A stretch of DNA of 64,000 bases from Acidimicrobiales bacterium (GCA_041394265.1 JAWKIO010000005.1:603531-667530), one strand, 5' to 3'. Positions 1 to 11,253 are shown, counted from the first letter of the stretch. Program-made: numbers and translations. Notes: generated by a model not told the origin, from the sequence alone.

Positions 1-341
1 GGCAGCGCCCAGATCACGACCACCAAGGCGATGGCACCGACCGTGACACCCGCCGAAGCGGCGTCGCGTCGCAGACGCAGCCAGGCCCGGGCCAACACGA
101 TCAGGCCGGCGTAGAAGATGACCAGAGCGACCACGACGTCGACCGACGGCCGCACGGGCACGGTCGGCACCGACCACCAGCGCCCACCGCCGAGGTGGGT
201 GGAGGCGCCCGACAGTGCACCGCCGACGACCAGGGTCAGGGTGCCGATGAATCCCAGCACCGTCGCTGGCAGAAGGGGATGCAGTCGCCGGGAGTCGATG
301 CCACGAAGTGTAGGGATCCAACCTGGCCACGCCGTGGACAC
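1..341 (-). CDS. 5' part of a membrane glycosyltransferase, probably MptB-like alpha-1,6-mannosyltransferase (runs off the window; start uncertain)
   Basis: Manual translation gives hydrophobic helices (...VLGFIGTLTLVVGGALSG...FYAGLIVLARAWLRLRR...LVVVIWALP), resembling the MptB N-terminus before the W-x-x-P motif. Not in the ORF track because it is truncated. Confidence 0.5.
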   Translation of the reverse strand, partial: MSTAWPGWIPTLRGIDSRRLHPLLPATVLGFIGTLTLVVGGALSGASTHLGGGRWWSVPTVPVRPSVDVVVALVIFYAGLIVLARAWLRLRRDAASAGVTVGAIALVVVIWAL

Positions 342-456: not shown

Positions 457-951
457 ATGACCATCCTCGGTGCTCAACTCGACGACCTCAGCCGACTCAG
501 CCAGCGGCTCACCACAACGGCCGGCGACGTCGGCGGATCGCGCGACGGCGCGATTCGCACCACGACCCAGGTGGTCACTGGGGTGCAGGAGGCGGCGCAG
601 GCCGCGCTCGAACAGATCATGACCCACATGGACCAGCTCGGTCAGTCGGTGGCGGCCTCGGTCGCCGAGGCGGGCGCGACGAATTGGACCGGCAGCAACG
701 CCGATCGGTTCCGCGACGGGGCCACCACCTTCCAGCGGTCCATGCAGGCGGCGCAGAACACCACCACCGACGTGTTCAGCCAGTTCCGTGCCACCATCGC
801 CTCACTGTCGGACACCCTCGACTCCTACGCGGCCGCCCTCGGCACCCAGTTGAGCGATGCCGAGCAGTCGGTGCAGCAGATGTCGCAAGCGGTGGATCAC
901 CAGCGCTCGAACCTCGACTCGGTGATGAACACCGGGCTCGCGTTCAGCTGA
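457..951 (+). CDS. WXG100-like (ESAT-6-like) type VII secretion substrate, elongated (164 aa)
   Basis: ATG at 457. Helical A/Q/T-rich sequence with a central NWTGSNA (W-x-G at aa 77-79). Lies next to an FtsK/EccC-like ATPase gene. Confidence 0.75.
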   Translation: MTILGAQLDDLSRLSQRLTTTAGDVGGSRDGAIRTTTQVVTGVQEAAQAALEQIMTHMDQLGQSVAASVAEAGATNWTGSNADRFRDGATTFQRSMQAAQNTTTDVFSQFRATIASLSDTLDSYAAALGTQLSDAEQSVQQMSQAVDHQRSNLDSVMNTGLAFS

Positions 952-952
952 C

Positions 953-1321
953 ATGCCGAGCGCATCCGATTTCGACGCGGCGGCGACTGCCCTGACGAAG
1001 GCCGCCGCCGAGCTGACGGAGTGGATGGTCGGGACCCGAGACCGTTTCGGACCCGACACCATCTCGGGTGGTGCGCTCACGCAGGTGTGCCATCAGGCGG
1101 TCGACGAGGCGGAGCAACTCGCGACGTCGACCGCCGAGGCGCTGCGCTCCCAAGCGGCCCTCTGCCGCCAACGGGCGGCCGCCGTGCGGAGCTACGAGGC
1201 GGCGCTCGGCAGCTACCAGGCCGCGATGAACGACTGGCGGGACACCGTCAACGACCTTCCCTCCGGCGTCGCAGCACCCGCCATGCCGATCCGTCCGGCC
1301 AAACCCGGCTTCGCCCCCTGA
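953..1321 (+). CDS. Small helical protein, putative WXG100-like partner/adaptor (122 aa)
   Basis: Starts 1 bp after the WXG gene stop. Two Ala-rich helices around a TISGG turn, with a Pro-rich tail. Confidence 0.6.
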   Translation: MPSASDFDAAATALTKAAAELTEWMVGTRDRFGPDTISGGALTQVCHQAVDEAEQLATSTAEALRSQAALCRQRAAAVRSYEAALGSYQAAMNDWRDTVNDLPSGVAAPAMPIRPAKPGFAP

Positions 1322-1350
1322 CCACCCGTCTTCCCACCGAGAGGAAGCCA

Positions 1351-2331
1351 ATGACCGACTACCTGTACATCGACACGACCAGAGCACGCACCGCCGCGCA
1401 AGCGTTGCGAGCCGTCTCGGCCGCGGGCGTCGACCACGCGTCGACCATCGCCCGGGCCTGCCGACTCGCCGATCTCGCGAACGACTCGGGAGGCAGACTC
1501 ACCGACGTCGCCGAGGCGCTCGCCGAGCTGGCCACCGTGCTCGAGGAGCGTTCCGATGCCGCCGACTGCAGTGGGCTGCTCCCCTACCAATCTCGCAGCA
1601 TGGCGTTGGGTGACCTCACCATGTTGCTCTACGGCGCCACGCCGCCGACGCCCGGCGAACTGTTCCCGGTGATCGGCCCTCCGACCAATCGGCCCACCTT
1701 CGCCGGCGCCGTCGGCAACGGTTCGGGCTCCATCGGCGGCATCGAGCCCGCCCAGTCCGACCGGCGTCTGACGCCGATCATCCCCTGGTTCGACGATGTC
1801 CTGGATGATCCGTTCCTGTCACCGTCGACGTGGTCCGACATCGCCCTCGAACCGTGGAGAATGGTGGCCGATGGCGTCGCCGACGCGCTGCCATCGATCG
1901 ATCGGGATGACATCGACCTCTTCATCGAGCGAGTGCAGGCCGCCACCGACGTCGAGCGAATGATGCGAGGCGAAACACTGCCCGGCGGCATCCCGGTCAT
2001 CGCGGCCGAGGTCTTGGCCCAGTACGGCATCCTCAGCGTCGGCATCCTGGGCGGCGGGCTGTCGTACACCCGGGCGGGCGACGGCGAGCTGCGACTCGGC
2101 CTATCGGTCCCGCTGAACCCGCCTACCTCCTATCTGCCCTACGCCACGTTCACGCCGACCAACGAGGTGCCCGAAGACGGCGTGAGCCTCCAGATCATGG
2201 CGTGCGATTGGGTGTGCGGCGGCGGCAACATCGACGAGAACGGCAAGGTCAGCACGGTCATCGGCGCCGGACCGCTCGGGCTCGACGTGAGCCTCAGCGA
2301 CACCCGTTGGTGGAAGCCGTTCGGGGACTGA
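1351..2331 (+). CDS. Putative T7SS effector: helical N-terminus plus unknown Gly-rich C-terminal domain (326 aa)
   Basis: RBS gagga before ATG 1351. N-terminus YLYIDTTRARTAAQALR resembles WXG/LXG-type starts. Third gene of the operon. Confidence 0.55.
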   Translation: MTDYLYIDTTRARTAAQALRAVSAAGVDHASTIARACRLADLANDSGGRLTDVAEALAELATVLEERSDAADCSGLLPYQSRSMALGDLTMLLYGATPPTPGELFPVIGPPTNRPTFAGAVGNGSGSIGGIEPAQSDRRLTPIIPWFDDVLDDPFLSPSTWSDIALEPWRMVADGVADALPSIDRDDIDLFIERVQAATDVERMMRGETLPGGIPVIAAEVLAQYGILSVGILGGGLSYTRAGDGELRLGLSVPLNPPTSYLPYATFTPTNEVPEDGVSLQIMACDWVCGGGNIDENGKVSTVIGAGPLGLDVSLSDTRWWKPFGD

Positions 2332-2337
2332 ACGATG

Positions 2338-5300
2338 TCAGGCAACCTCGGCCATGGCAACGTGCAACACGGTGGCACGGCCCCGATCCAGCAGAATCGA
2401 GCGTCCGGTCGGGTGCTGACTCAGATCGGGAACGACGAGCCGCACCGCTTCGGCGTCGAGGCGGCTGGGGTTGAGCAGCAGCACGGTGGCGTCGGCCAGC
2501 ATCGGCGCCAACCACCCGCCGAAGGTTCGAGCTGTCGACGTCGAGGCAGCGACGACGACGGGGCGACCAGCCCGATCCGCCAACTCCAGCCGACGACGAA
2601 CCTCGTCGTCGGCAAGGCGGTCGCCGTCATCGATGACCTCGACGTCGCTCGCCGCACCGAGCCGGTCGAGACCGGCGACGAGCGTGGCCAACGTGGTGGT
2701 GCGACCGCCGCCGGGACGACCGAGCACAATGAGGCGGCGGCCGGCGGCGAGCCGGACGGTCACGGGCTCGAGATCTTCGTCGAAACCGATCGGCACCGAC
2801 CAGCCCTGCTGGTCACCGCTGCCGACAGGGAGACCATCGAGTGGCATCTGCTCGGCCAACACCCGCACCGGCTCCGGCAGCGTCGTCGGCTTCGACCAGG
2901 CGGCCAACCGGGCCAGCGCATGGTCGGAGAGATCGACGACGACACCGGGAAGGCCGGCATCGGCATCGAACACCGCCGCACCTGGGCCCGGCAAGTTCGA
3001 GTGATGGACGTCGAGCGCCAAACCCGAACTGGCGTCGCCCAGGCGATGCACGAGTCGACGGCGGATCGAGCCCAGCACCCGCGACGGCAGCTCACGATCC
3101 GATGTCACCCCGATCACGGGCACGATCGCACCATCGGCGAATGCGCGCGCCAGATGCAGCGGAGCATCCGGACCAACCACGTCGCTCAGTGTGTCGACGA
3201 CGGGACCCCAGCGGTTGACGACCACCACCAAGGCCGGCGAACCATCACTCGAGCCGCACCGCCGTCGTCGATCGATGACCACGAGGGCTCTCGACAATCG
3301 ATCCGCGTCGCGATGGTGGACCACGTCGGCGACCGACCCGAGCACACCGAGCCGGTCGACCAGACCACCGGAACCGTCGAGGATCAACACCTCGGTGTCG
3401 GGAGCGTCGAGGGCCATCGAGCCGACGATCGTGGCGATGGTGGCCGCCAGGCGGGCTGGATCGGCAGCGGCGACGACCACGCCACCATCAGCCGGCGACC
3501 AGGCGATCGGTAGTTGCAGCCGTCGATCGGCATCGTCGAGCACTCCGAGGACTGCTCGGCCGCCGGGGGTCGAGCGCTGACGATCGGACGCATCGCCGAT
3601 GACCCACAGCCGCTCGGCGGGAATCGACGGTGGCAGCGGTGGAAGCCATGGCGCTCGTGCCCGCTCGGGGTGACACCGACCAATCATGTCGATGATCTGC
3701 GAAGGCCACGATGTTGCGCCCGTCGGCCCGACCGATGGCTCGAGGGTGAACGGCCGGGCCGTCATCAGCTCGGCGCCCGCCAGATACCCGACTTGCGCCA
3801 AGCGATGCTGCTCGCCCCCGACCGTCACGATCGCCCGACCCGGCAGCGGCGGGAGGTTGGCGGCATCGGGCCGGTCGATCACATCGACGCTGTCGGCCGC
3901 CTCGCGCACTCGGAGGCAGATGCGCAGGTTCGTGTTGGCCCGGATCTCGCTCGTGACGACGCCCGCCGGGCGCTGTGTCGCGAGGACGAGGTGCACCCCG
4001 AGCGAGCGGCCCCGACGGGCCACGTCGACCAGGCCGTCGAGGAACTCGGGAAGCTCCTCGGCCAGCGCCGCAAACTCGTCTACCACGATCATCAGGCGCG
4101 GCGGCGACGTGCCGCGCTCGAGCATCGACAGATCGCTCGCACCGTGCTGGCGAAGGACCACCTCGCGATACTTCAACTCGGCTCGTAGGCTCCGAAGCGC
4201 TCGGGTGGCATGGGCAGGCTCGAGATCTGTCACGAGCGCCGCCACATGGGGCAGCGGTGCGACGACATCGAACGCACCACCGCCCTTGAAGTCGACGAGC
4301 ACGAAGGCAAGATCGTCCGGCGACTGCTGCAACGCAGCGGCGAGCACCAGGGAGCGCAACAGCTCGGACTTGCCCGAGCCGGTGGTGCCGGCCACCAGCG
4401 CGTGGGGCCCATCGCACACGACGTCGACCACCAATGGACCGTCGGAGCTCATACCGAGCGGGATCCGGAGCTGGTCGGGGCGAGCCCGGTCCCAAGAGGC
4501 CCGCAGTTCCTCCTCTCCCGTCGAACCGGTACCGAGCGGACACAGGCGAGCGAGGGGTACGGCGTCGGGCAAGGGCGCCGACCGTTCCTCGACTTCGGGG
4601 TCGGCGAACGGAGCGAGGAAGCGGGCGAAGGTCTCGGCTTCGTTCGCCGCGAGCCGCCATGTCCACCCGGCAACGGCGCCATCGAGCGAACGGACGTAGC
4701 CGTCGGCGGTCACCTCGAGCACCTGCTCGCAGACGGCGGGAACGTCGTGCACCGCACCGAGCCAGAGCACTCGGGCGGCCGCCATCTGACCGCTGAGAAG
4801 CCGGGCGAAGGCGCCGGGGCCCGATGGTGTCGGACCGTCGGCGATGACCAGTTGGGTGGCGGCTGCCTCGGCCATGCGGGCAGCGACCGCGTTGGCGCCC
4901 GCATGCTCGACTTCGACCGTGGCGAAGCCGGGCAGCCAGCGGGCCCATTCCCAGTCCGCTCGACGGTCGGGTGTCGTGATGATCGTGCACTCCAGATCGG
5001 CCGGGCCGTGGCGATAGGCAGTCTCGATGCCGATCCAGCGCGCCAGGGCGAGCACTTCGGCCCGATCGCCGGTGACGGCCAACCCGCGCTCGATGTCGAC
5101 AACGAGCGGCACGTCGTCGAGTCCGATCGCCGGACCATCGGGGATCACGAGTCCGCCCCGCCCGACAGCGACCGGGAGGCACACCCCGGTGGCCAACCGC
5201 CGAGTCCACGGCCGCAGGGTCACTGACTCGACCAGCCGATCGATCTCTCCCGGGCTGAAGACCAGGCGCTCCAACCACTCGGCGACCGCGTGACCCCACG

Positions 5301-5850
5301 CCGCTTCGTTCGCTCGACACGCCAGCTCGTACTCACGCCACTCCTCGGCGTGACGGCGCTCGGCTCGGGTCCGGGTCAGCCGCGGCCCCAGCGCCCGGAA
5401 CAGTGGGATCGCTGCCGATGCGGCACCCAGTAGCGCAAAGGTCGGCGACCACAGCGTGGCCATCAGGGCGCTGACCATCAGCATGGGGATCACCGTCGCA
5501 TACGGGATCGCCGGTAGCGGGTCCAGCGGTTGCGGATGCTCGGGCGGCGATGGCCGCTCGGGCCGAGGCGCTGCCCCGTGCGGCGGCCGGATCACCGAGA
5601 TTCGGCCCTCTCGGTCGGGGCGCCAGCCAGCTTGCAGGTGCGCGCTGGACGGCACGGCCTGCTCGGCCTCGCCGGCGAACACCATCGCTCGATGCAGCCC
5701 GATGTCGGCCAGCGAGATCGACCCGTGTGACTCGGCCACCCGGAGGCCCAGCGCCGATCGGAGATCGGCCAGGGTGTGTCGGCTCAGGTCGGTGCCCAGC
5801 TCGACACTGAACGATGCAGATCCCCGGCCGTCCTCGACGATGAACTCCAT
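2338..5850 (-). CDS. eccC: FtsK/SpoIIIE-family EccC/EssC-like type VII secretion ATPase (1170 aa)
   Basis: Two TM helices. Domain 1 has GPHALVAGTTGSGKS and IVVDEFA plus GRSLGVHLVLATQRP. Second and third ATPase domains are degenerate (GRPGGGRTT). Confidence 0.85.
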   Translation of the reverse strand: MEFIVEDGRGSASFSVELGTDLSRHTLADLRSALGLRVAESHGSISLADIGLHRAMVFAGEAEQAVPSSAHLQAGWRPDREGRISVIRPPHGAAPRPERPSPPEHPQPLDPLPAIPYATVIPMLMVSALMATLWSPTFALLGAASAAIPLFRALGPRLTRTRAERRHAEEWREYELACRANEAAWGHAVAEWLERLVFSPGEIDRLVESVTLRPWTRRLATGVCLPVAVGRGGLVIPDGPAIGLDDVPLVVDIERGLAVTGDRAEVLALARWIGIETAYRHGPADLECTIITTPDRRADWEWARWLPGFATVEVEHAGANAVAARMAEAAATQLVIADGPTPSGPGAFARLLSGQMAAARVLWLGAVHDVPAVCEQVLEVTADGYVRSLDGAVAGWTWRLAANEAETFARFLAPFADPEVEERSAPLPDAVPLARLCPLGTGSTGEEELRASWDRARPDQLRIPLGMSSDGPLVVDVVCDGPHALVAGTTGSGKSELLRSLVLAAALQQSPDDLAFVLVDFKGGGAFDVVAPLPHVAALVTDLEPAHATRALRSLRAELKYREVVLRQHGASDLSMLERGTSPPRLMIVVDEFAALAEELPEFLDGLVDVARRGRSLGVHLVLATQRPAGVVTSEIRANTNLRICLRVREAADSVDVIDRPDAANLPPLPGRAIVTVGGEQHRLAQVGYLAGAELMTARPFTLEPSVGPTGATSWPSQIIDMIGRCHPERARAPWLPPLPPSIPAERLWVIGDASDRQRSTPGGRAVLGVLDDADRRLQLPIAWSPADGGVVVAAADPARLAATIATIVGSMALDAPDTEVLILDGSGGLVDRLGVLGSVADVVHHRDADRLSRALVVIDRRRRCGSSDGSPALVVVVNRWGPVVDTLSDVVGPDAPLHLARAFADGAIVPVIGVTSDRELPSRVLGSIRRRLVHRLGDASSGLALDVHHSNLPGPGAAVFDADAGLPGVVVDLSDHALARLAAWSKPTTLPEPVRVLAEQMPLDGLPVGSGDQQGWSVPIGFDEDLEPVTVRLAAGRRLIVLGRPGGGRTTTLATLVAGLDRLGAASDVEVIDDGDRLADDEVRRRLELADRAGRPVVVAASTSTARTFGGWLAPMLADATVLLLNPSRLDAEAVRLVVPDLSQHPTGRSILLDRGRATVLHVAMAEVA

Positions 5851-7929: not shown

Positions 7930-9738
7930 TCAGCTGCCCTCGCGTTCTGCAGAGAGTTCTAGCCACCGCTCCTCCTGCTCGGCCAGTTCCGATTCGATTT
8001 TGGCCAGAGCGTTGCCGATGTCGGTGAGCTTCACGTGATCGGATCCGGCGGCTGCGAGGTCGGCGTGCAGCGAGGTCTTCGAGCGCTCGAGTCGGGCCAT
8101 CGCCTTCTCGGTTTCCCGGATCAGGTGCCCCAGCGTGCTCGATGAGCGCCCGGACTTGACCTTCGTCCTCGTGTCGCCCTTGCGTGCCGGCTGGTCGTCG
8201 CTCGCCGACTGGCCCTGCCCCTTGCCGGCCGCAGCCTGCCCGGCACCGCTGGACCGGGCAGCGCCGGACTTGGCGTTCGCTCGCCGGTGTTCGTCCCAGG
8301 CGTTGTAACCCCCGGGATAGCGACCGGCGCTCCCGCTGCCGTCGATGATCAGCGCGTCGGCAACGACCCGTTCGAGGAACGCCCGATCGTGTGAGACCAC
8401 GACCACGGCGCCCGGCCAGTCCTCGAGGAAGTCCTCGAGCGCTCGCAGGGTCTCGAGATCGAGGTCGTTGGTCGGTTCGTCGAGCAGCAACACATTGGGT
8501 TTGGAGGCCAGGATCGTGAGGAGCTGGAGCCGGCGGCGTTCACCACCGGACAGCGTGTGGACCTCGGCCCACTGGGCGTCGGAGTCGAACCAGAAGCTCT
8601 CGAGCAGCCGGGCATCGGTCCAGTCGGGCTGGCGATGGGGGCCGGCGATGACTTCGCGGACCCGGGCGTTCGGGTCGAGTTCTTGATCCTGCTGGGTGTA
8701 GTAGCCGAGCTGCACCGTCGACCCCCACGTCACCGTGCCATGCTGCGGCTCGCGCCGTTTCGCCATGAAGTCGAGCATCGTGGTCTTGCCTGCGCCGTTC
8801 GGGCCGACGATGCCCAACCGCTCACGAGGATCGAGGCGCAGCTCGATGTCGTCGAACAGCGTGCGTCCATCGGGCGCAACGGCGGTGACGCCCTCGAGTT
8901 CGATGACGACGTCGCCGAGCCTCGGGGTGCCGAACTCCATGTGGAGCTGCGCCGGGCGGGCCGGGCCCTCCAGCTTCTGGCCGATGAGCTCCTTGGCCGC
9001 TTCGACCCGGTACTTGGGTTTGGACGTGCGGGCCTTCGCTCCACGGCGCAGCCATTCGAGTTCGCTGCGTGCCAGATTGCGGCGGATGGCATCGGCTGCG
9101 GCGGCGGCTTCGGCCCGGCCGGCCTTGCTGTCGAGGTAGTCGGCGTAGTTCCCCTCGTGGACGTATGACGAACCGCGGTCGAGTTCGAGCATCCGGGTCG
9201 TGACCCGATCGAGGACGTGGCGGTCGTGGGTGACGAGCAGCAGCGCACCTCGGTAAGCCGCAAGCCAGTCTTCGAGCCACTCGATGCCTTCGAGGTCGAG
9301 ATGGTTGGTCGGCTCGTCGAGGATGAGGAGGTCGCTCGGCGTCACCAGGGCCTTCGCCAGACCCACTCGCTTCACCTCACCGCCCGACAGTGCATTGGTC
9401 TGCCGATCGAAGTGGTTCCCCATGCCGAGGCGGGTGAGCACCGACTCGGCCTCCCACTGCTCGACGCCGTCGGCTGCGGTGACTGCCTCGAGCACGGTGC
9501 CGGCGGGCAGAGGTGCGTCTTGGTCGAGCATGACGACCCGGACTCCGCGGCCGAAGATCACGGTGCCACTCTCGGGTTGCTGACGGCCGGCGAGGACCCG
9601 GAGCAGCGTGGACTTGCCGGTGCCGTTGATGCCGACGATGCCGAGTCGATCCCCGGTGCGAACGGTGACCGAGACGTCTCGGAACAGGTCGCGGTCGGGA
9701 CGAGACATGGTCACGGCATCGGCGTCGATCAGAATCAC
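7930..9738 (-). CDS. ABC-F family ATP-binding protein (Uup-like)
   Basis: Two ABC cassettes (GINGTGKS/LSGGE/LDEPTNHLD and GPNGAGKT/LSGGE/LDEPTNDLD), no TM segments, C-terminal coiled coil. Confidence 0.93.
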   Translation of the reverse strand: MILIDADAVTMSRPDRDLFRDVSVTVRTGDRLGIVGINGTGKSTLLRVLAGRQQPESGTVIFGRGVRVVMLDQDAPLPAGTVLEAVTAADGVEQWEAESVLTRLGMGNHFDRQTNALSGGEVKRVGLAKALVTPSDLLILDEPTNHLDLEGIEWLEDWLAAYRGALLLVTHDRHVLDRVTTRMLELDRGSSYVHEGNYADYLDSKAGRAEAAAAADAIRRNLARSELEWLRRGAKARTSKPKYRVEAAKELIGQKLEGPARPAQLHMEFGTPRLGDVVIELEGVTAVAPDGRTLFDDIELRLDPRERLGIVGPNGAGKTTMLDFMAKRREPQHGTVTWGSTVQLGYYTQQDQELDPNARVREVIAGPHRQPDWTDARLLESFWFDSDAQWAEVHTLSGGERRRLQLLTILASKPNVLLLDEPTNDLDLETLRALEDFLEDWPGAVVVVSHDRAFLERVVADALIIDGSGSAGRYPGGYNAWDEHRRANAKSGAARSSGAGQAAAGKGQGQSASDDQPARKGDTRTKVKSGRSSSTLGHLIRETEKAMARLERSKTSLHADLAAAGSDHVKLTDIGNALAKIESELAEQEERWLELSAEREGS

Positions 9739-9742
9739 CGTG

Positions 9743-10418
9743 CAAGGCTAACGACGTCGTCACGCGTGGCCGACGAAGGAGGCACGCCCACGAACAGCCG
9801 GACCAGATCGGCGAAGCCGGGACCGGCGGACACGGTCCAAGGCCAACGACGTCGTCGCGTGGCCGACGGAAGAGGTACGCCCACGAACACCCGGACCAGA
9901 TCGGCGAAGCCGGGACCGGCGGACACGGTCCAAGGCCAACGACGTCGTCACGCGTGGCCGACGGAAGAGGTACGCCCACGAACACCCGGACCAGATCGGC
10001 GAAGCCGGGACCGGCGGACACGGTCCAAGGCCAACGACGTCGTCACGCGTGGCCGACGAAGGAGGCACGCCCACGAACACCCGGACCAGATCGGCGAAGC
10101 CGGGACCGGCAGACACGGTCCAAGGCCAACGACGTCGTCACGTGGCCGACGGAGGAGGCACGCCCACGAACACCCGGACCAGATCGGCGAAGCCGGGACC
10201 GGCGGACACGGTCCAAGGCCAACGACGTCGTCACGCGTGGCCGACGAAGGAGGCACGCCCACGCCCACGCCCACGAACCCCGGACCAGATCGGCGAAGCC
10301 GGGACCGGCAGACACGGTCCAAGGCCAACGACGTCGTCACGCGTGGCCGACGAAGGAGGCACGCCCACGAACAGCCGGACCAGATCGGCGAAGCCGGGAC
10401 CGGCGGACACGGTCCAAG
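9743..10418. repeat. Tandem array of 7 copies of a ~95-bp unit
   Basis: Units start at 9743, 9838, 9931, 10026, 10121, 10214 and 10320 (93-106 bp). Consensus caaggccaacgacgtcgtcacgcgtggccgacgaaggaggcacgcccacgaacacccggaccagatcggcgaagccgggaccggcggacacggtc. Confidence 0.95.
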
Positions 10419-10434
10419 CAATAGAGTCCAATTC

Positions 10435-11253
10435 ATGGCTGGCATTCTCGGTGACCCGCTCGACATGCACGATCCTGCTCGGCGTCGGCCATCGTGGCCG
10501 AAGCTGCCGGCCACTCGTGGGCTCGTCGTGCGGCATCGGACGACGGGCTACGTCGGCCATGTGATGCGCTACAGCCCGGATTGGATCACGCTGCGCGATC
10601 AACAGGGCCGGGAGCACGTGCTCCGCAACGATCGCGGCGCCTTCTCACACGAGGGGAAGACGGTGGTGCTGGTGGCACCGCCCAAGCCGACCAAGGCGAC
10701 CGAGTTCACTGCTTCCGGGTCGGTGGCGCTCGACAACGTGGCAGCCCGGGTGGCCCAGCCGAGTCGAATCCTCGTCGAGGGCATTCACGATGCCGAACTC
10801 GTCGAGAAGGTGTGGGGTGCCGATCTTCGGATCGAGGGTGTCGTGGTGCAACCGCTCCACGGCGCCGACGACCTGCGGGAGATCGTGAGCCGGTTCGGCC
10901 CGCGTCCCGGTCGCCGCCTCGGGGTCCTACTCGACCATCTGGTCGACGGTTCCAAGGAAACCCGCATCGCCGACACGATCGACCATCCCGACGTCCTCAT
11001 CACGGGCCACCCGTACGTCGACATCTGGCAGGCGGTCCGCCCATCGGTGCTCGGCATCGGCGCCTGGCCGACGATCCCGAAGGGCACCGATTGGAAACGA
11101 GGGATCTGCGACGAGTTCGGCTTCAAGGGTGAGCCGGGTGAGCTGTGGAAGCGAATCCTCGACCGGGTGACCGGCTACCGGGATCTCGAGCCGGGACTCG
11201 TCGGCGCCGTCGAGCAGCTGATCGACTTCGTCTCGCCTCCTCCCGTCGACTGA
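10435..11253 (+). CDS. DUF3097 family protein (actinobacterial, Toprim-like)
   Basis: SRILVEGIHDAELVEKVWGADLRIEGVVV and GHPYVDIWQAVRP match the family as recalled. ATG at 10435. Confidence 0.85.
   Translation: MAGILGDPLDMHDPARRRPSWPKLPATRGLVVRHRTTGYVGHVMRYSPDWITLRDQQGREHVLRNDRGAFSHEGKTVVLVAPPKPTKATEFTASGSVALDNVAARVAQPSRILVEGIHDAELVEKVWGADLRIEGVVVQPLHGADDLREIVSRFGPRPGRRLGVLLDHLVDGSKETRIADTIDHPDVLITGHPYVDIWQAVRPSVLGIGAWPTIPKGTDWKRGICDEFGFKGEPGELWKRILDRVTGYRDLEPGLVGAVEQLIDFVSPPPVD

Follow-up and report, generated by a model that had tools for sequence, protein, structure and literature searches.

A candidate reduced type VII secretion locus with variable cargo in uncultured Acidimicrobiales

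We analysed a 64,000-nucleotide stretch of DNA, hereafter the window, from an Acidimicrobiales bacterium (GCA_041394265.1 JAWKIO010000005.1:603531-667530), and more precisely four genes at its beginning, called here A to D, which recall the components of a type VII secretion system (T7SS). The host, an uncultured actinobacterium from soil, has a chromosome of 69% GC, and the genome, 5.7 Mb in 6 contigs, is 96.6% complete. A listing of open reading frames (ORFs), together with direct reading of the sequence, places the genes as follows (aa, amino acids).

457-951, + strand: gene A, 164 aa
953-1321, + strand: gene B, 122 aa
1351-2331, + strand: gene C, 326 aa
2338-5850, - strand: gene D, 1170 aa

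The ORFs fall exactly where the original prediction for this DNA had put three + strand genes converging, with a 6-bp gap, on a 1170-aa ATPase. The ATG of B lies 1 nucleotide past the TGA of A, B being translationally coupled to A, and C is preceded by a ribosome-binding site of its own, GAGAGGAAG. Between the stop codons of the convergent genes C and D lie 6 bp (2332-2337), and no terminator-like hairpin was found there. For A, we retained the start at 457 rather than that of a longer ORF from 118, because 11 orthologues share this start, all beginning with MT(I/M)LGAQL after a Shine-Dalgarno sequence.

All four genes are real and under selection. Compared with G004, a genome of the same genus, the ratio of nonsynonymous to synonymous substitution rates (dN/dS) is 0.07 for A, 0.26 for D, 0.32 for B and 0.64 for C, and 0.10-0.17 for the flanking housekeeping genes; as dS is near saturation, the ranking alone is reliable. 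This ranking is the one expected for a core component (A), a motor (D), an adaptor (B) and a cargo (C).

The ATPase and the search for membrane partners

D is a membrane-anchored, multi-domain ATPase of the EccC/EssC family, as placed by its hidden Markov model (HMM) and PDB profile scores. Among the NCBIfam models it matches EssC (TIGR03928; E 6e-88, 296 bits), EccCa (E 1e-77, 262 bits) and EccCb (E 1.5e-54), with EssC/EccC scores that stay under the equivalog cut-offs, as opposed to E 1e-19 and 69 bits for FtsK (cut-off 1566) and E 1e-5 and 24 bits for TraB (cut-off 800). Its top PDB match is the Thermomonospora curvata EccC (4NH0, E 3.5e-69, in three matched stretches), followed by the mycobacterial EccC5 and B. 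subtilis YukB, and residues 253-346 match the isolated DUF domain of EccC5 (8rin). The original prediction depended on D grouping with EccC/EssC and not with conjugative or DNA-translocating FtsK proteins, and on this point it is upheld.

The protein consists of a variable cytoplasmic N-terminus of about 110 residues, two transmembrane (TM) helices, a DUF-like domain and three P-loop domains (D1 to D3), with the following features.

5383-5520, - strand: two-helix TM hairpin of D (aa 111-156), from a hydropathy scan, kept in all orthologues
3784-4485, - strand: D1 ATPase domain of D (aa 456-689), Pfam FtsK_SpoIIIE at E 2.5e-35, Walker A GTTGSGKSE and Walker B VVDEFAAL intact
2341-2808, - strand: D3 domain of D (aa 1015-1170), Walker A lysine replaced by arginine (GRPGGGRTT) in the alignment

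Canonical Walker motifs are found in D1 only, and there Walker A (GTTGSGKSE) and Walker B (VDEFAAL) are invariant in an alignment of 16 orthologues. Pfam and PDB profile searches with the N-terminus matched neither FHA nor YukD, and no FHA domain is found anywhere in D by Pfam at E<=1. Because the remoter homologues in Acidimicrobiia, Thermoleophilia and other Actinomycetota are longer (1350-1600 aa) and many of them carry FHA domains, the clade of D looks like an FHA-less derivative. The genome holds exactly two FtsK-family genes, D and the housekeeping ftsK (C5:3.12 Mb). In two relatives, G002 (L039 8127-11787) and G020 (L045), the orthologue of D is split into two or three frames, through either a long-read frameshift error or pseudogenisation.

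We searched the window's own genome, in six frames and with HMMs, for the components that usually accompany such an ATPase; these searches are homology-based, and divergent or novel partners could escape them. Over the whole genome, the best E value was 0.31 for EccB (PF05108) and 0.03 for EccE (PF11203), YukD (PF08817) gave noise only, and EccD (TIGR03920), YukC/EssB (PF10140) and EsaA (TIGR03929) gave no match. The mycosin model (TIGR03921) retrieved only three generic subtilases (190 bits versus a cut-off of 279), megabases away from the locus. The absence of EccB/D/E, mycosin, EssB and EsaA, which had been claimed for the window, thus holds for all 5.7 Mb, no search having been made for EssA. 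The same genome yielded no second EssC/EccC and no credible further WXG100 match (one stretch at E 0.31). Since there is neither a second EssC/EccC nor any ecc/ess core gene elsewhere, the locus is not the satellite of a fuller system, and the full ecc set elsewhere, for which the original prediction had left room, was not found genome-wide.

Clustering of the proteins encoded at 16 loci revealed no family common across the arrangements besides A and the ATPase, in an analysis where B-like and cargo proteins recur but split into several BLAST clusters. The closest neighbour on the other side of A is the following.

Window 1-341 and upstream (L011 10845-12341), - strand: 498-aa polytopic membrane protein, divergent from A, no Pfam match

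This protein, 46-84% identical in the syntenic loci, adjoins A in every one of them and is absent from the non-syntenic A-B/ATPase loci (L080, L083-L085, L088-L090 and L092), on which ground we rejected it as a core part of the T7SS; by eye, its sequence resembles a glycosyltransferase of the GT-C type. Two families of large proteins found beside FHA-type paralogues of the ATPase were also rejected as machinery, one being the HrpA helicase, a housekeeping protein, and the other carrying the N-terminal domain of C described below, hence a cargo. Beside one such FHA-type EssC paralogue, in G029 (L052 12007-14432), lie a TPR protein and an AAA+ ATPase, a combination reminiscent of the way TPR and AAA parts are joined in the ESX chaperone EccA.

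The A-B pair and its cargo

The AlphaFold2 model of A, built on a 34-sequence alignment (pLDDT 88.9), consists of two antiparallel helices (8-74 and 80-163) joined by a turn with an invariant W77-T-G79, within W77-T-G79-x-N-A-D-R-F. As modelled, the fold is that of the WXG100 design with each helix lengthened (164 aa versus about 100 for WXG100 proteins), and the functional analogy to these proteins is good. What agrees with the original designation of A as a WXG protein is the predicted helical hairpin and its W-x-G turn; the Pfam WXG100 match stays below the cut-off. A has neither signal peptide nor TM segment, its sequence profile finds only coiled-coil noise in the PDB, and its C-terminal end is conserved (...Q-x-x-N-L-D-x-V-M-N-x-G). 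Nearly always single-copy, it belongs to a family of 62 clusters among 5.8 billion proteins, all of 162-167 aa save two fragmentary or mis-called entries; the named records are all from Acidimicrobiales bacteria, and one record had been labelled YukE by JGI. A distant A-like protein beside a Pesticin cargo (L092 5629-6126) has a Y-V-G instead of a W-T-G turn, so the tryptophan is not universal in the wider A family.

B is laid out as a helix, a conserved G-P-D...GG loop (more generally G-x-D...GG), a long helix and a conserved proline-rich C-terminal tail. It has no Pfam relative, and a PDB profile search returned coiled-coil noise only. Neither B nor C has a signal peptide, and none of A, B and C matches LXG (PF04740), DUF3130 or DUF3958 in Pfam at E<=1.

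The layout of the locus is kept in relatives. In 11 of 12 loci, from several genera (the twelfth being a contig-end fragment with the ATPase side only), the order is ABC-F, (SDR), aminotransferase and D, converging on a variable segment of 1-4 kb, followed by B, A and the 498-aa membrane protein. Compared with the window proteins, identities range over 45-91% for A, 37-64% for D and 35-66% for B, and C can be recognised in the closest genomes only. What varies always opens with a gene whose first 80 residues or so align to the N-terminus of C, the rest being unrelated between genomes. The cargo types are the following.

326 aa: G000 and G004
276-287 aa, Gly/Ala-rich and hydrophobic: G001 and G002
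about 620 aa: five genera
328-352 aa, glycine-zipper-like: G027 and G035

After the cargo type of about 620 aa, in three genera, come DUF4214 proteins with signal peptides (L042 7637-8761, L046 7066-8190 and L041 11656-12798), which might be immunity proteins, receptors or unrelated neighbours.

A wider search for A, over 185,579 species genomes, returned 34 loci, nearly all in metagenome-assembled genomes (MAGs) of uncultured Acidimicrobiales, Acidimicrobiia or unclassified Actinomycetota. B directly follows A in 32 of them (31 by tblastn at E<=1e-4 and 1 more by clustering), and is elsewhere in the locus in L085; L092 is a further case of B. The ATPase may be convergent, divergent or co-directional relative to A-B, and is sometimes not within 10 kb. 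Among 61 relatives, A is present in 26, of which 25 have an EssC-like ATPase, the exception being a 79%-complete bin. As far as these genomes tell, A, B, the cargo and an EssC-like ATPase form a conserved module, present in about 35 genomes of uncultured Acidimicrobiales under three gene arrangements: at the level of sequence, A and B always occur together, followed by at least one protein sharing the N-terminal domain (N-domain) of C, with C-termini that are interchangeable.

C itself begins with this conserved helical domain of about 80 aa (1351-1590), which matches no Pfam model and, among PDB profiles, coiled-coil noise only. Its consensus is h-I-D-P-x-x-V-x-x-x-A-x-x-L-R ... E-E-L-x-x-L-A-x-I-L-x-x-R, and its start, [IL]-D-[PT]-x-[DE], might be the 'LDXD' head of PMC3482391. 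A Pro/Gly linker, a helical middle part with the single hydrophobic segment of C (aa 212-237) and a beta-rich C-terminal domain containing glycine and cysteine follow; in the C-terminal domain are found a segment Y-G...G-x-G...Y..A-G-x-G and the motif C-x-x-V-C-A-G. A word-index search found no homologue of C, and its relatives were reached through a profile of the N-domain; those of full length form 8 clusters, at 30-43% identity, in which the C-terminal domain is conserved as well.

The N-domain occurs once in the window genome. Run against 1.84 billion representative proteins, its profile matched 100 proteins, which are 78-1575 aa long; in 98 of them the domain reaches no further than about residue 115, and in 97 it starts within the first 20. 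Their C-termini fall into 36 clusters, that is, at least 36 unrelated families. A scan of 66 proteins with Pfam recognised Pesticin (2), LysM (2), TNT (1), Endonuclease_NS_2 (1), ADP-ribosyltransferase (1) and peptidase C2 (1); the two Pesticin domains come long after the N-domain, the one in P0248 near the C-terminal end. Some of the toxin-domain relatives of C are followed by immunity-like genes. A complete example is L092, which encodes in this order an EssC-like ATPase of 1495 aa, then divergently an A-like protein (165 aa, HMM E 2e-18), a B-like protein (137 aa, E 2e-30), one of the Pesticin proteins and a protein of 144 aa whose start resembles a signal peptide. In G027 (L043 11750-15780), two tandem cargo genes encode proteins whose N-terminal 111 aa are 86% identical and whose C-termini are unrelated; the first gene is followed by that of a TM protein of about 176 aa, paralogues of which recur in G035. 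In appearance, this is a typical array of polymorphic toxin/immunity cassettes. Judged from its annotations, the family as a whole displays what defines a polymorphic toxin system, namely an N-terminal trafficking domain, variable toxins and immunity genes. The effector role first proposed for C is thus supported by an N-domain that is fused, in relatives, to many unrelated C-termini, toxin domains included; C itself has no LXG domain and, in this genome, no immunity gene next to it.

The surroundings of the module are chromosomal housekeeping genes, and mobile-element genes are lacking. On the left, beyond the 498-aa protein, these flanks comprise a membrane-anchored trypsin-like protease, NifU and FolD, and on the right a class I/II aminotransferase, an SDR and an ABC-F protein. 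Further to the right, a long ORF (9217-11253 of the window) has DUF3097 domains only from residue 430 on, which fits a later true start. Upstream of A lies one more feature.

342-456, + strand: AT-rich intergenic region with a direct repeat and a ribosome-binding site, candidate promoter/operator

The tandem direct repeat, TTTACGTTTA-TTTACGTTTA at about 386-410, stands in an AT-rich stretch (380-415) of this 69% GC genome; the motif is partly conserved, its core TACG(T/G)TT being kept in four genomes of the same genus, and it is possibly an operator for some regulator. No sigma-70 consensus match and no Rfam family were found in the region upstream of A, nor did Rfam and promoter scans of the locus give anything meaningful.

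Secretion model and rival explanations

We propose, with a probability of about 0.7, that the locus is a functional export module of the T7SS type for polymorphic cargo, and that this module is a lineage-specific, reduced T7SS variant of uncultured Acidimicrobiales. The family of the ATPase, the genome-wide absence of the usual partners and the predicted hairpin of A all favour the stripped-down T7SS, in a little-described lineage, that had originally been suggested. In the cytoplasm, A, B and the N-domain of C would come together as a long bundle of helices, resembling the LXG-Lap1-Lap2, EsxAB and PE-PPE complexes, an analogy that draws on the TelA-LXG/LapA3/LapA4 complex and on PE-PPE (PMC10801868). 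A conserved C-terminal tail, most likely the ...NLDxVMNxG of A, would then dock on the ATPase, as the tails of EsxB and EsxA do on EccC/EssC (PMC11217815); by analogy with the work on EccC and EsxB summarised there, D3 is a candidate for the domain that docks the substrate signal. ATP hydrolysis by D1 in a hexamer of D would push the bundle through a pore lined by the TM hairpins of D. C would be the cargo, its C-terminal domain acting extracellularly, on neighbouring cells (at their envelope or membrane) or on the surface of the producer itself, as either an antibacterial toxin or a surface/envelope factor. Since A, a highly conserved protein in single copy, serves two cargo paralogues in G027, we think that it may be at once a core protein in the manner of EsxA and a targeting factor in that of the Lap proteins. 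One might go further and speculate that the EccC-family ATPase is the sole membrane component, a hexamer of two-helix hairpins forming the pore, and that export needs just one long WXG protein, a helical partner and a trafficking domain of about 80 aa; this stronger version we hold only tentatively, as possible rather than probable.

Several observations weigh against the model. Every T7SS studied experimentally needs extra membrane proteins, and a ubiquitin-like component as well, the predicted T7SSd excepted (PMC11217815); homology searches detected none of these in the window genome. The match of A to the Pfam WXG100 model is weak (E 1e-3, 19.6 bits versus a cut-off of 27.3, in 3 of 10 orthologues) and no better than that to generic coiled-coil families, and a Foldseek search of the PDB with the model of A returned generic long hairpins only, such as chemoreceptors. 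The profile-profile comparison of A with B and of A with the N-domain of C by hhalign revealed no relation, which leaves unsupported the idea that all three are WXG100 paralogues. In the alignment of 16 orthologues, D2 has no P-loop and the P-loop of D3 (G-x-x-G-x-G-R-[ST], residues 1036-1044 of D) has an arginine for the Walker lysine in 16 of 16, a change that is fixed across the clade and not a product of random decay. As for C, its AlphaFold2 model, from a 4-sequence alignment, is unusable (pLDDT 37), it has no Pfam hit and hence no recognisable toxin domain, and no immunity gene lies next to it in the window genome.

The need of all characterised T7SSs for extra membrane parts is also an argument for an ordinary multi-component system, whose other membrane subunits would lie nearby or elsewhere and be too divergent or lineage-specific to be recognised. 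The 498-aa polytopic protein, with no Pfam match and divergently adjacent to A in every syntenic locus, would be one candidate, and since some relatives have the ATPase on another contig than the A-B-cargo genes, unlinked components are normal in this clade. However, the 498-aa protein is missing from the non-syntenic loci and has the look of a GT-C-type glycosyltransferase, the clustering of 16 loci brought out no shared family save A and the ATPase, and the genome-wide HMM searches were negative for eight known core families. We consider such a system unlikely, although it is the alternative to be taken most seriously. It is far less probable that the locus is the decaying remnant of a fuller T7SS that has lost secretion. 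The loss of the FHA domains of the wider Acidimicrobiia EssC clade, the degenerate nucleotide sites of D2 and D3 and the fragmented orthologues of D in G002 and G020 would fit such a decay, but D is otherwise intact, with D1 motifs invariant in 16 orthologues from several genera, purifying selection is stronger on A than on the neighbouring ABC-F gene, the length of A is held at 162-167 aa in 62 clusters, and the cargo is actively diversifying.

Conjugation in actinomycetes uses the FtsK-like TraB, and D does match the Pfam FtsK_SpoIIIE domain; one might thus imagine a DNA-translocating or conjugative pump of the FtsK/TraB type, with A, B and C as unrelated neighbours. We give this almost no credit, as the FtsK and TraB scores are far below those for EssC and EccCa, D has three tandem P-loop domains and an EccC-type DUF domain, the flanks are of the housekeeping kind with no mobile-element genes, and the linkage of A-B to the ATPase is kept across rearrangements.

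Relation to known type VII systems

Under the preferred reading of a reduced T7SS variant, the nearest parallel in logic is with the T7SSb of Firmicutes, where an LXG toxin and the proteins Lap1 and Lap2 form a tripartite export signal (Klein et al., PMC9600955, PMC10801868). In both cases the genes of two small helical proteins immediately precede that of a polymorphic effector, whose conserved helical N-terminus is followed by interchangeable predicted toxins, often with immunity genes after them, and the ATPase is of the EssC type. However, the proteins are unrelated in sequence to LXG, DUF3130 and DUF3958, and the N-domain has about 80 aa, against about 200 for the LXG domain. A, moreover, is single-copy, extremely conserved and endowed with a W-x-G, and may double as an EsxA-like core. 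The host is actinobacterial, EssB, EsaA and EsaB were not detected (EssA was not searched for), and FHA domains are not found on D. The locus thus seems to resemble the LXG/Lap logic while being built from unrelated sequence families.

With T7SSa (ESX) it shares the phylum, Actinomycetota, an ATPase closest to EccC, including the DUF domain, and a gene for a predicted WXG-type hairpin beside the ATPase. In contrast to T7SSa, EccB, EccD, EccE and mycosin were not detected genome-wide, one long WXG-type protein with a non-WXG partner replaces the EsxA/EsxB pair, and D is shorter by about 200 aa, its D2 being degenerate and its D3 arginine-substituted. Garrett, Higginson & Palmer 2024 defined T7SSa to T7SSj from RefSeq, all with further components (PMC11217815); their survey did not cover these MAG-only lineages, and none of the ten types is this locus. 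The likeness to T7SSd is that of a non-canonical system with an ATPase and a WXG-type protein and no ubiquitin-like protein, but T7SSd has the FHA-bearing ATPase TsdC, the kinase TsdD, TsdH and the giant TsdI, whereas D lacks FHA and the flanks of the locus contain no kinase and no giant Ig-like or large envelope protein (no search was made with TsdH or TsdI models). Zhang et al. 2012 described T7SS polymorphic toxins headed by WXG, LXG or LDXD, occasionally with neighbouring YueA-like ATPases, and noted stand-alone cassettes of WXG and ATPase in other phyla (PMC3482391). Like those modules, ours has an N-terminal helical trafficking domain and variable toxins, with an ATPase nearby as they occasionally have one of the FtsK/HerA type; unlike them, its trafficking head matches no Pfam model, its active ATPase domain is D1 and not the middle one of three, and it belongs to the chromosome and is inherited vertically instead of being mobile. 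In the library searched, full-text queries for type VII secretion together with Acidimicrobiia or Microthrix, and for WXG100 and FtsK together with Acidimicrob*, found no paper.

By its gene content, then, the locus falls outside T7SSa, T7SSb and T7SSd, and its putative effector is not an LXG protein; the architecture would be that of an undescribed subtype, possibly with a minimal membrane apparatus. A, B and the cargo N-domain define three families that Pfam lacks, with which one can look for new toxin and immunity domains. The module would extend T7SS-dependent warfare with polymorphic toxins to the Acidimicrobiales, a widespread uncultured lineage of soil, water and sludge. As membrane crossing in T7SSs and the subunits essential for it are still debated, the system would also be a natural case for asking if the ATPase can make the channel by itself. 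Should the ATPase indeed be the sole membrane part, these bacteria would possess a natural minimal T7SS, together with a new toxin-targeting signal.

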